From assembly GCA_028288545.1 (NCBI GenBank), contig JAQBNQ010000298.1:1-33542 (forward strand): a stretch of 33,542 bases of DNA, in the 5' to 3' direction. Below are positions 3,001-4,128 of this stretch, piece after piece. The position numbers and the translations under genes are program-made. The DNA is from Bacteroidota bacterium (lineage in GTDB: Bacteria > Bacteroidota > Bacteroidia > Chitinophagales > LD1). Position 1 is the stretch's first letter, and each line of letters opens with the position of its first letter. The notes under the pieces are model-generated. The model ran no database searches. It worked only from the letters and a program-made list of their open reading frames with translations, and was not told the DNA's origin.

Positions 3001-4128
3001 ACTTACACTGGCGGAACAGGAATTGCTATTGATCCTTCAAACGTGATCAATTCAGTTTGGACACAAAGTGGTTCTACTATATACAATAACAATGGTGGAC
3101 AGGTTGGTATTGGTATTACAGCTCCTGTAGCTTATGCAAACGCACAAGCTGACGCCGGTACAGTTTATTCAACCGGTTTGAGCGGAACTACTTCTGTGAG
3201 CCCGGGAAGCTCTTTCAGTAGTGTTTTCGGAAACATGTTTGCCTTTACTGAGGCAGCAGGTTTACATGGTTTGTCAAACAACTCAGGCACTACCATTTCT
3301 TATGGTGTAATTGGTGATAACACAGGGGCAGGACTTTATGGTGTAGGTGTTATGGCTACTTCTTCTGGTGCTTCTACTGCTAACAATTACGGTTTCTACA
3401 GCTTTGCAACAGGTGCAGCTGCATACAACATTGGCGGTTACTTAGATGGTGAAGGCAGTGGGGGTGTAGGTAACGTGGGTGTTCTCGGTTCGGCTGGTTT
3501 TACTAATGATGGAGCTTTTAACATTGGTGTTTGGGGTCAGGCTAATGGAACCGGCGCAGTTGCTGGTCAATTTGATGGTGCTACTATTGTAAACGGACAA
3601 GTAACTATTAATGATGGTACCGCAGCAACTGGTTTTGTATTAACTGCAAACAGCATTGGTGGCGACGCTAGCTGGCAGCCAGTAGGGGCTCTTACTGATC
3701 CTTCTACAAACACAGGATTCCAGGCAAATGATGGTTTTGCTACTGTACCGGATGGAACAAGCACTGCTGTAGTTTATGATAATGTAGTATTTGATGATGG
3801 TGCAAACTACGATGCTAGCACAGGAACTTATACTGCACCAAGTTCAGGTGTTTACCATTTTTCGGCTAACATTTATTATTTAACATTTTCAGCGAACGGT
3901 GTTGAATCTGATATATACATTGCCGTGAACGATATAAATTTTGGAGAAGTTGCTGCTAATACAACTCTTTCAAGTACTTCGTTATTCAGCAATAGCATCA
4001 GCTTGGACATTAAATTAGCTGCTGGCGACAAAGTGAATATTGTGGCATTGAATTTTAGCGGAAGTACTGAAATTGCAGGCACCTCTAATGTTAATTACTC
4101 AACTTTCTCAGGTCATAAAGTATACTAA
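4..4128 (+). CDS. Secreted collagen-like fibre protein (1374 aa): conserved N-domain, ~330-aa Gly-X-Thr collagen-like stalk, beta-rich repeat body, C-terminal gC1q/TNF-like globular head
   Basis: ATG at 4 followed by a signal peptide ([23 protein letters not shown]). The N-domain NYQAVVRD...[11 protein letters not shown] is shared with the ORFs at 5791 and 9189. Residues ~133-461 are Gly-X-Y triplets (GAT/GPT/GND). GNVGIGTxxPxxKLEV-type motifs recur in the body. The last ~135 aa carry gC1q hallmarks ([57 protein letters not shown]). Confidence 0.9.
400..1386 (+). repeat. Collagen-like Gly-X-Y coding tandem repeat (9-nt periodicity with higher-order ~130-147-bp units)
   Basis: ggn-nnn-acn triplet periodicity is read directly from the DNA. 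Register-breaking G(A/S)GG(G/A) interruptions start at 820, 967, 1096 and 1231. The repeat creates shadow ORFs on the opposite strand and in other frames. Confidence 0.9.

Follow-up and report, generated by a model that had tools for sequence, protein, structure and literature searches.

What is a bacterial protein doing with a collagen-like stalk and a globular C1q (gC1q) head? The question is raised by the first gene of contig JAQBNQ010000298.1 from the Bacteroidota bacterium assembly GCA_028288545.1, of which we analyzed positions 1 to 33,542 (the whole stretch of DNA hereafter called the window). This gene is an open reading frame (ORF) at 4..4128 on the forward strand that encodes 1374 amino acids and ends with a stop codon at 4126-4128, and a preliminary description had presented it as an unusual bacterial counterpart of C1q, adiponectin and collagens VIII and X. 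We consider it likely that the product of ORF 4..4128 is a Sec-exported, homotrimeric fibre akin to the mosaic adhesive trimer (MAT) fibres of Bdellovibrio, in which a base domain, a collagen spacer and a shaft would carry a C1q recognition head. Along the forward strand the gene encodes a predicted Sec signal peptide (4..69; aa 1-22, with Gln at mature position 1), an N-terminal base domain that is a beta-sandwich by modelling and a remote relative of Bdello_MAT_N (the N-domain, 70..405; aa 23-134), a collagen-like Gly-X-Y stalk recognized by Pfam Collagen and by triplet count (406..1386; aa 135-461), a beta-rich shaft of three modules (1387..3690; aa 462-1229), and a gC1q head at the extreme C-terminus (3718..4125) to which a Pfam match at nt 3757-4116, phmmer, AlphaFold2 and Foldseek all point. 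The signal peptide and the shaft were delimited by reading the sequence itself.

Profile searches and structural modelling confirmed that the C-terminus of ORF 4..4128 is a true gC1q domain with a predicted jelly-roll fold, as the preliminary description had proposed. PF00386 (C1q) matched aa 1252-1371 with 36.4 bits when the whole protein was searched and with 42.3 bits (E 1e-10) when the last 142 residues were searched alone, compared to a gathering cut-off of 23.7 bits, and a six-frame search of the whole genome found the same interval again at 41.2 bits. The three C1q motif strings quoted in the preliminary description are all present in the translation; the core motifs are the best conserved parts of the head, and its terminal motif reads FSGHKVY where animal heads read FSGFLLY. 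When the head was searched with phmmer against all PDB chains, C1QL3 (4qqp) aligned over the full head including the terminal motif (E 4e-6), and further matches were to C1QL1/2, C1q A/B/C, CTRP5, EMILIN-1, adiponectin, cerebellin, collagens VIII/X and Caprin-2. An AlphaFold2 monomer model of the last 150 residues, predicted from an alignment of the head with 18 related heads from fetched loci, contains ten beta strands and has a mean predicted local distance difference test (pLDDT) score of 85.4 and a predicted template modelling score (pTM) of 0.81. In Foldseek, gC1q heads made up 49 of the 50 best PDB matches of this model (best E 5.6e-11), with target-normalized template modelling (TM) scores of 0.79-0.85 against the heads of C1QL, Caprin-2, C1q and collagen X and of 0.68-0.77 against those of cerebellin, adiponectin and collagen VIII. 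Also among these matches were 1o91 and 1gr3, which we take to be collagen VIII/X structures. A phage protein family of unknown function, phrog_15750, matched aa 1247-1372 (E 2e-13), and PF18573 (BclA_C) gave no match at E ≤ 1 with either the whole protein or the head.

The stalk is equally recognizable as collagen-like. Pfam Collagen (PF01391) matched it in seven stretches with 111.8 bits against a cut-off of 27.2 (E 1.3e-32), and the 327 residues from aa 135 to 461 hold 102 Gly-X-Y triplets compared to approximately three in shuffles of the same residues, in good agreement with the stalk of about 330 residues that had been described. These triplets fall into seven runs of 46, 15, 13, 7, 6, 7 and 8, which are broken by GAGG, GSGG, GSGG, GF, GSGA and GGT, and threonine occupies 75 of the 106 Y positions. 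At the 0.28 nm per residue implied by measurements on the F-BclA stalk (PMC12357932), the stalk would be approximately 85-90 nm long. Between it and the head lies the beta-rich body noted earlier, a shaft of approximately 770 residues (aa 462 to ~1229) that is rich in Gly, Ala, Asn and Thr. Each of its three modules closes with the pattern 'I.DGTAA..VL.....G...W..L.ALG' and its GNVGIGT motifs are common to paralogues, but the shaft had no match in Pfam, NCBIfam or the PDB sequences.

A C1q-tipped collagen fibre is not unusual, and the gene is an ordinary member of a large bacterial fibre family. Of 67 genomes from the same bacterial family, 42 had a PF00386 score above the cut-off, the listed matches lying within long open frames, and the head was the last element of the ORF in all nine of the related loci that were checked. 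The arrangement of signal peptide, N-domain, Gly-X-Y repeats (5-242 triplets) and C-terminal C1q recurred in 16 of 20 C1q genes that we fetched. C1q was rarer in an even sample of the phylum than in the family itself, scoring above cut-off in nine of 401 genomes. A search with the head recovered 1519 cluster representatives at E ≤ 1e-3 among 1.84 billion; in the best 150 of these, the head stood at the extreme C-terminus in 100 and an N-domain was present in 26. The nearest bacterial relative of the head, from P0002, is 55% identical (E 5e-34), and within the same bacterial family heads share 31-33% identity compared to ~55% for the base domain. Five loci were found by an alignment-based pattern search built on four heads, the named genomes being Chitinophagales, Runella, Flavobacteriales and unclassified Bacteroidota, and six by a pattern scan of metagenomes; a single-head pattern scan of genome contigs found nothing, and an alignment of eight heads contained no segment sufficiently conserved to serve as a search pattern; word-index protein searches performed poorly with so low-complexity a protein, returning six matches and one weak match. 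Related heads also occur on IMG/VR viral contigs, and the neighbours found in a viral structure library include proteins from cyanophages, other tailed phages, pandoraviruses and mimivirus relatives whose annotation is C1q-domain or collagen-like. The earlier view that the combination is unusual must therefore be given up: C1q heads close long ORFs in those 42 genomes of the family, and collagen together with C1q is annotated in phages and giant viruses and has been published for Bacillus fibrillae, phages and an extracellular contractile injection system (eCIS). Two relatives are worth recording individually. P0013 is a 1504-aa protein with an N-domain, four collagen-C1q units and then more collagen and a different tip, and because it carries them, the animal-style direct junction of collagen and C1q does exist in the bacterial family. 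A 961-aa ORF with a related C1q head lies in L013 (CAZFKA010000029.1), a contig binned into a metagenome-assembled genome that is labelled uncultured Bifidobacterium, and may reflect a binning error or a transfer.

It is the N-domain, and not the head, that defines this fibre family. The genome, which is 80.8% complete, contains 31 ORFs with the N-domain, in nearly all of which it immediately follows a signal peptide that ends with AQ, and approximately two thirds of which also contain Gly-X-Y runs. A cleavage junction of the form 'AQ|xPQxxNYQA' is common to nearly all of the 31, and Bacteroidetes substrates of signal peptidase I follow a 'Q-rule' that places Gln at mature position 1. Three copies fall in the window (70-405, 5854-6204 and 9249-9587) and the others are dispersed over further contigs (for example C394, C502, C536, C202, C189, C201 and C516). 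Beyond this genome, the N-domain was present in 103 of 401 sampled Bacteroidota genomes and 59 of 180 genera, and it was not found in IMG/VR viral contigs. Its model (pLDDT 87.9) is a beta sandwich of six to seven strands; because a PDB fold search returned only generic immunoglobulin (Ig)-like, macroglobulin and Big-type sandwiches, at query-normalized TM scores of ~0.4-0.5, we assign it no specific fold. The N-domain has no Pfam model and gave nothing significant in a PDB sequence search. By contrast, the NCBIfam model NF053851 (Bdello_MAT_N) hit the N-domain positions of 30 ORFs in a genome search, and it matched 29 of 30 aligned N-domains at E ≤ 0.01 (best E 2e-13), always through the same region of the model. 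The best paralogue reached 42.1 bits and ORF 4..4128 27.2 bits (E 2.9e-6), compared to a curated cut-off of 60 bits. These values show a remote homology to Bdello_MAT_N that is consistent across the paralogues, and by NCBI's definition the N-domain is not a member of that family.

What varies among the paralogues is the tip. Two of them end in Peptidase_S74, a 1095-aa ORF on C277 ends in an ALK/LTK-type glycine-rich domain (PF12810 ALK_LTK_GRD, E 4.5e-17), a 421-aa ORF on C383 ends in a phage-depolymerase C-terminal sandwich (PF25692 Phage_depo_C, E 2e-7), and the tips of several others match nothing known. Among the 31, ORF 4..4128 is the only one with a Pfam-recognizable C1q tip. As judged from these sequences, C1q is one of many interchangeable tips on a common chassis. 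A separate observation concerns a 485-aa ORF on C516, which adjoins a small gene of 166 aa of the type described below; it has a divergent C1q-like tip (...LDAFSRLSCHKVN) that a profile of the family heads detects and Pfam C1q misses.

The closest relatives of the fibre, which the preliminary description had not named, are the MAT fibres of Bdellovibrio. In B. bacteriovorus there are 21 paralogues, which are trimeric, have been located at the cell surface by experiment, have a conserved N-domain of ~130 aa after the signal peptide, and bear variable tips described as 'swapped out in evolution' (Caulton et al. 2024, PMC10769870). Some of the tips are TNF-like, and of these one (Bd2439) binds N-acetylglucosamine and another is most similar to a fucose lectin and C1QL2 (PMC10769870). 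The resemblance extends to the order of signal peptide and conserved beta-rich N-domain (~115-130 aa), to a fibre length of ~1000 aa, to the size of the repertoire (21 MAT fibres, 31 here), to swappable tips with and without S74, and to the TNF/C1q-like nature of some MAT tips. The two differ in phylum, in the sub-threshold score of the N-domain against NF053851, and in collagen, which is not mentioned in PMC10769870 and is carried by most paralogues here; furthermore, our head is a Pfam-recognizable gC1q, and a linked small secreted protein such as the one described below has not been reported for MATs.

At the level of overall design, the analogy with Bacillus BclA that the preliminary description drew also holds. 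BclA, L-BclA and F-BclA dock through an N-terminal element and carry, on a collagen stalk, a distal C1q head with 'presumed adhesive properties' (PMC12357932). In the Bacillus cereus group these proteins share with ours a Gly-X-Y stalk that is rich in Thr and comparable in length, as well as a C1q/TNF-type head at the distal end (PMC12357932, PMC11362473). Unlike ours, however, the BclA head belongs to PF18573 and directly abuts the collagen without a shaft of ~770 aa, docking is achieved by an exosporium leader or hook peptide and not by an Ig-like domain, and the setting is a Gram-positive spore as opposed to a diderm cell. Animal C1q, adiponectin, C1QL1-4 and collagens VIII/X have in common with ORF 4..4128 a PF00386 head, a ten-strand jelly roll, the hallmark motifs and collagen in the same polypeptide, but differ from it by an identity of only 17-27%, the shaft between head and collagen, and the extra N-terminal base domain. 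Hydroxyproline chemistry, a feature of animal collagens, is not expected in a bacterial host. Phage, giant-virus and eCIS proteins likewise end in a C1q jelly roll as the presumed fibre tip, and several have collagen repeats; examples in BFVD are 'Collagen-like protein with C1q domain [Fadolivirus]' and Synechococcus phage C1q proteins. In phages such domains are treated as putative receptor-binding proteins (PMC7468147), and a fibre of the Aquimarina eCIS carries C1q (PMC12923769). In contrast to our protein, these have no signal peptide and are encoded together with virion or injection-system genes.

Taken together, ORF 4..4128 is most reasonably read as encoding a trimeric fibre whose tip serves in binding. 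In the scheme that we propose, the fibre would be exported by Sec and would then trimerize. Its invariant N-domain would form the proximal docking end, held at the surface of the producing cell as in the MAT fibres of Bdellovibrio, the collagen triple helix would act as a long flexible spacer to which the shaft adds length, and a gC1q trimer would form the distal tip, whose likely ligand is a glycan or another surface epitope of particles, microbes or host. The scheme builds on what we observe directly, namely the domain identities, the modelled folds of base and head, the signal peptide, the set of paralogues, the distribution of the family and the linkage to a small T9SS-sorted partner gene. 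The behaviour of the C1q family and the collagen repeat suggest that the fibre trimerizes (our structure predictions are monomer models), and analogy with related fibres points to surface display, to the polarity that places the N-domain proximally, and to an adhesive function.

Several features of the protein weigh against this proposal. In searches with Pfam and NCBIfam, the fibre showed no type IX secretion system (T9SS) sorting domain at E ≤ 1 (PF18962 Por_Secre_tail, PF13585 CHU_C), and no lipobox or other recognized signal for export across or anchoring in the outer membrane. Every match to NF053851 lies below the 60-bit cut-off and covers approximately positions 3-80 of the 162 in the model, that is, its first half. 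In addition, C1q, adiponectin and collagens VIII/X, with whose layout that of the protein had been equated, are defined by collagen that directly precedes the head, and the protein departs from this: here the collagen ends at aa 461 and the head begins at approximately aa 1239. Because the shaft separates the two, the head is in no position to nucleate the triple helix, a role that it has in C1q and collagen X. We speculate that the N-domain, which abuts the collagen, may do so instead. The N-terminal V domain of streptococcal Scl proteins provides an analogy for nucleation of collagen from this end.

The lack of a sorting signal on the fibre directs attention to a family of small secreted proteins encoded beside fibre genes. 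Small partner protein 1 (5233..5757, forward strand, 174 aa) consists of a signal peptide, a mini-domain of ~50 aa and a T9SS C-terminal sorting domain (CTD) matched by Por_Secre_tail (PF18962, E 2.3e-12). The mini-domain (~50 aa, ...LTQGFQQP) was present in 26 of 400 sampled genomes of the phylum, and all 26 also contain the N-domain, which has a base rate of 102 of 400 in that sample. Counted by hand from coordinates, the 43 mini-domain genes include 24 whose start lies ~500 nt ahead of a same-strand N-domain and ~13 others that immediately follow an N-domain gene, such that ~37 of 43 adjoin one. Gene order and sequence thus identify the mini-domain gene and the N-domain gene as a conserved two-gene module. 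We considered whether C1q fibres are obligatorily paired with a small T9SS partner and rejected this, as only 4-5 of 20 related loci have one next to the fibre gene; in the genome studied here there are six to seven small partners for 31 fibres.

For ORF 4..4128 itself the upstream neighbour is missing, the contig beginning 3 nt ahead of the ATG. The syntenic locus of P0002 (L028) consists of a small T9SS protein, a C1q fibre, a low-complexity secreted protein, a second fibre and a PF10136 protein. In our genome, contig C285 carries a 186-aa small partner gene (4414-4974) with an identical mini-domain and ends 14 nt later, at 4988; the tail that follows this gene resembles the spacer in L028, and the end of C285 and the start of the window share no terminal overlap. 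By synteny with L028, the C1q fibre probably has its small T9SS partner upstream, on C285. A tentative extension, which we think somewhat doubtful, is that the mini-domain protein, as the only T9SS-sorted member of the cassette, docks onto the N-domain of CTD-less MAT-like fibres of Bacteroidota, this one included, and in an undescribed in-trans use of the T9SS either escorts the fibre out or, once attached through its own sorting domain, tethers it to the surface. The co-occurrence in 26 of 26 genomes, the adjacency of ~37 of 43 genes and the position of the partner directly upstream of the C1q fibre in L028 favour this idea, whereas the majority of N-domain genes, and of C1q-tipped relatives, lack a partner beside them.

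Two alternatives retain the fibre but change the role of its head or its location. The head might serve mainly as a C-terminal nucleus for trimerization and folding, or as a cap for the shaft, much as NC1 domains do in collagens VIII/X or C-terminal chaperone modules in phage fibres, with binding residing elsewhere or the fibre being purely structural, as in a nap, matrix or biofilm scaffold. Trimerization is obligatory for domains of the gC1q type, which in collagens VIII/X serve for registration. That property, together with the presence of collagen VIII/X structures among the matches and the concentration of conservation in the core motifs, speaks for such a role, as do the paralogues that end in S74 chaperone domains, whose part is trimer quality control (PMC10769870). 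We nevertheless find it rather unlikely as the main function, given that the characterized prokaryotic and viral C1q/TNF tips cited here are all treated as the binding end and that heads at 31-33% identity above a base at ~55% fit a diversifying recognition end; the two roles are in any case not exclusive. Alternatively, the fibre might be released as a soluble or matrix-associated lectin-like fibre, such as in biofilm or in vesicles, and not be anchored on its producer. The absence of an anchoring signal of known type would suit this, as would the 15-16 of 20 C1q-headed relatives without an adjacent T9SS partner and the MATs of Bdellovibrio that also end up in a shed vesicle. That the N-domain is retained in 31 paralogues and a quarter of sampled genomes points instead to docking as its shared function. 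Linkage to a T9SS-sorted mini-protein suggests that the fibre attaches to surface-anchored cargo, and MAT fibres have been seen on the cell surface, and as such we consider release an improbable fate for the fibre.

The remaining alternatives concern the origin of the gene and carry, in our judgement, very little weight. One would make it the tail fibre of a prophage, a tailocin or an eCIS, in keeping with matches to PHROG tail-fibre families that fall mostly in the collagen region, the match of phrog_15750 to the head, related heads on IMG/VR contigs and in many phage proteins, and the C1q-bearing fibre of the Aquimarina eCIS. Fibres of phages and eCIS assemble in the cytoplasm, and a Sec signal peptide on nearly all paralogues is hard to reconcile with such assembly. 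The 33.5-kb window moreover contains no phage or eCIS structural genes and has the content of an ordinary chromosome (GldM, GldN, LspA, DnaX, an M16 peptidase, a 2-oxoacid dehydrogenase E2 and a short-chain dehydrogenase), and the N-domain, absent from IMG/VR viral contigs, has 31 dispersed chromosomal copies, which makes this origin highly improbable. We see just as small a chance of a recent animal origin of the head, with mimicry of host C1q or adiponectin serving to manipulate a host, although Pfam C1q is dominated by animal proteins and, in a published tree, some C1q domains of bacterial eCIS fall within metazoan clades (PMC12923769). Identity to animal heads is 17-27%, with sequence E-values of 1e-5 to 1e-6, as compared to 55% and E 5e-34 for the nearest bacterial head, and the domain is both common and deeply diverged within the bacterial family. 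In a maximum-likelihood tree built from viral heads and the 150 nearest cluster representatives, which covers near neighbours only, our head fell in a well-supported clade of five rows with an N-domain-bearing bacterial protein. In this tree a 99/86 branch parts all 26 N-domain rows, on the side of our head, from most rows that end in the animal-type FSGFLL motif, which is also what classed rows as 'eukaryote-like'. The phylogenetic check that had been suggested consequently gave, among near neighbours, no sign of a recent horizontal transfer from eukaryotes, and recent acquisition from animals is not supported, while a tree of this scope cannot settle the deep origin of the domain. Overall, the observation of a gC1q head and a collagen stalk in the preliminary description was borne out, and its interpretation was supported in part: the head, the stalk, the reading as a trimeric fibre and the BclA analogy stood, the claim of unusualness did not.

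With a Sec-exported, MAT-like fibre as the favoured reading of ORF 4..4128, the C1q head on a collagen stalk is no oddity of animal immunity moved into one bacterium, but a tip module that prokaryotic and viral fibres use routinely. The gene adds one well-documented and long example from the Bacteroidota and helps to join two literatures, that on the MAT fibres of Bdellovibrio and that on the BclA-type fibrillae of Bacillus. At the level of the family, it leads to a base domain, as yet uncatalogued, of which one genome has 31 copies and which occurs in approximately a quarter of sampled Bacteroidota, and to a tightly linked T9SS mini-protein that may explain how fibres without a sorting signal are displayed. 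The ligands of the tips would show what environmental Bacteroidota recognize and adhere to.

Downstream of the C1q fibre, the window continues with the remainder of a fibre cluster. Immediately after it, 4177..4872 on the forward strand encodes a secreted, K/A/Q/T-rich low-complexity protein of 231 aa that matched neither Pfam nor PHROG. A similar signal-peptide protein follows the C1q fibre gene in L028 (6066-6728), L030 (8646-9122), L032, L034, L035, L037 and L041 and is absent from 'solo' loci, and loci with a small T9SS partner tend to carry such a gene after the fibre. Position and composition are all that these proteins have in common, as phmmer detected no mutual sequence similarity among them. 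The product of 4177..4872 is possibly an accessory of the partner-bearing type of cassette.

The two other fibre genes of the window share the N-domain and collagen stalk of the C1q fibre and carry different heads. Fibre paralogue 2 (5791..8487, forward strand, 898 aa) ends in a KIDHPLDP... module and fibre paralogue 3 (9189..11105, forward strand, 638 aa) in a head of the same KIDHP type, for which a PDB sequence search gave nothing significant. Each is preceded at a distance of 33-35 nt by a small partner gene, that of paralogue 3 being small partner protein 2 (8632..9153, forward strand, 173 aa), which also has a T9SS-CTD (PF18962) and shows 82% nucleotide identity with the copy at 5282-5581. 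GldM and GldN, together with the T9SS sorting domains in the window, support the assignment of this DNA to the Bacteroidota. Beyond the fibres, the presence of a PF10136 'site-specific recombinase' gene prompted us to consider a shufflon or inversion system, which we rejected as 1-13300 contains no inverted repeats and DNA-level identity among the paralogues is only 60-82%. The PF10136 gene itself lies at 11219-13219 and occupies the same place downstream of the fibre cluster in the syntenic locus L028 (9185-11185).

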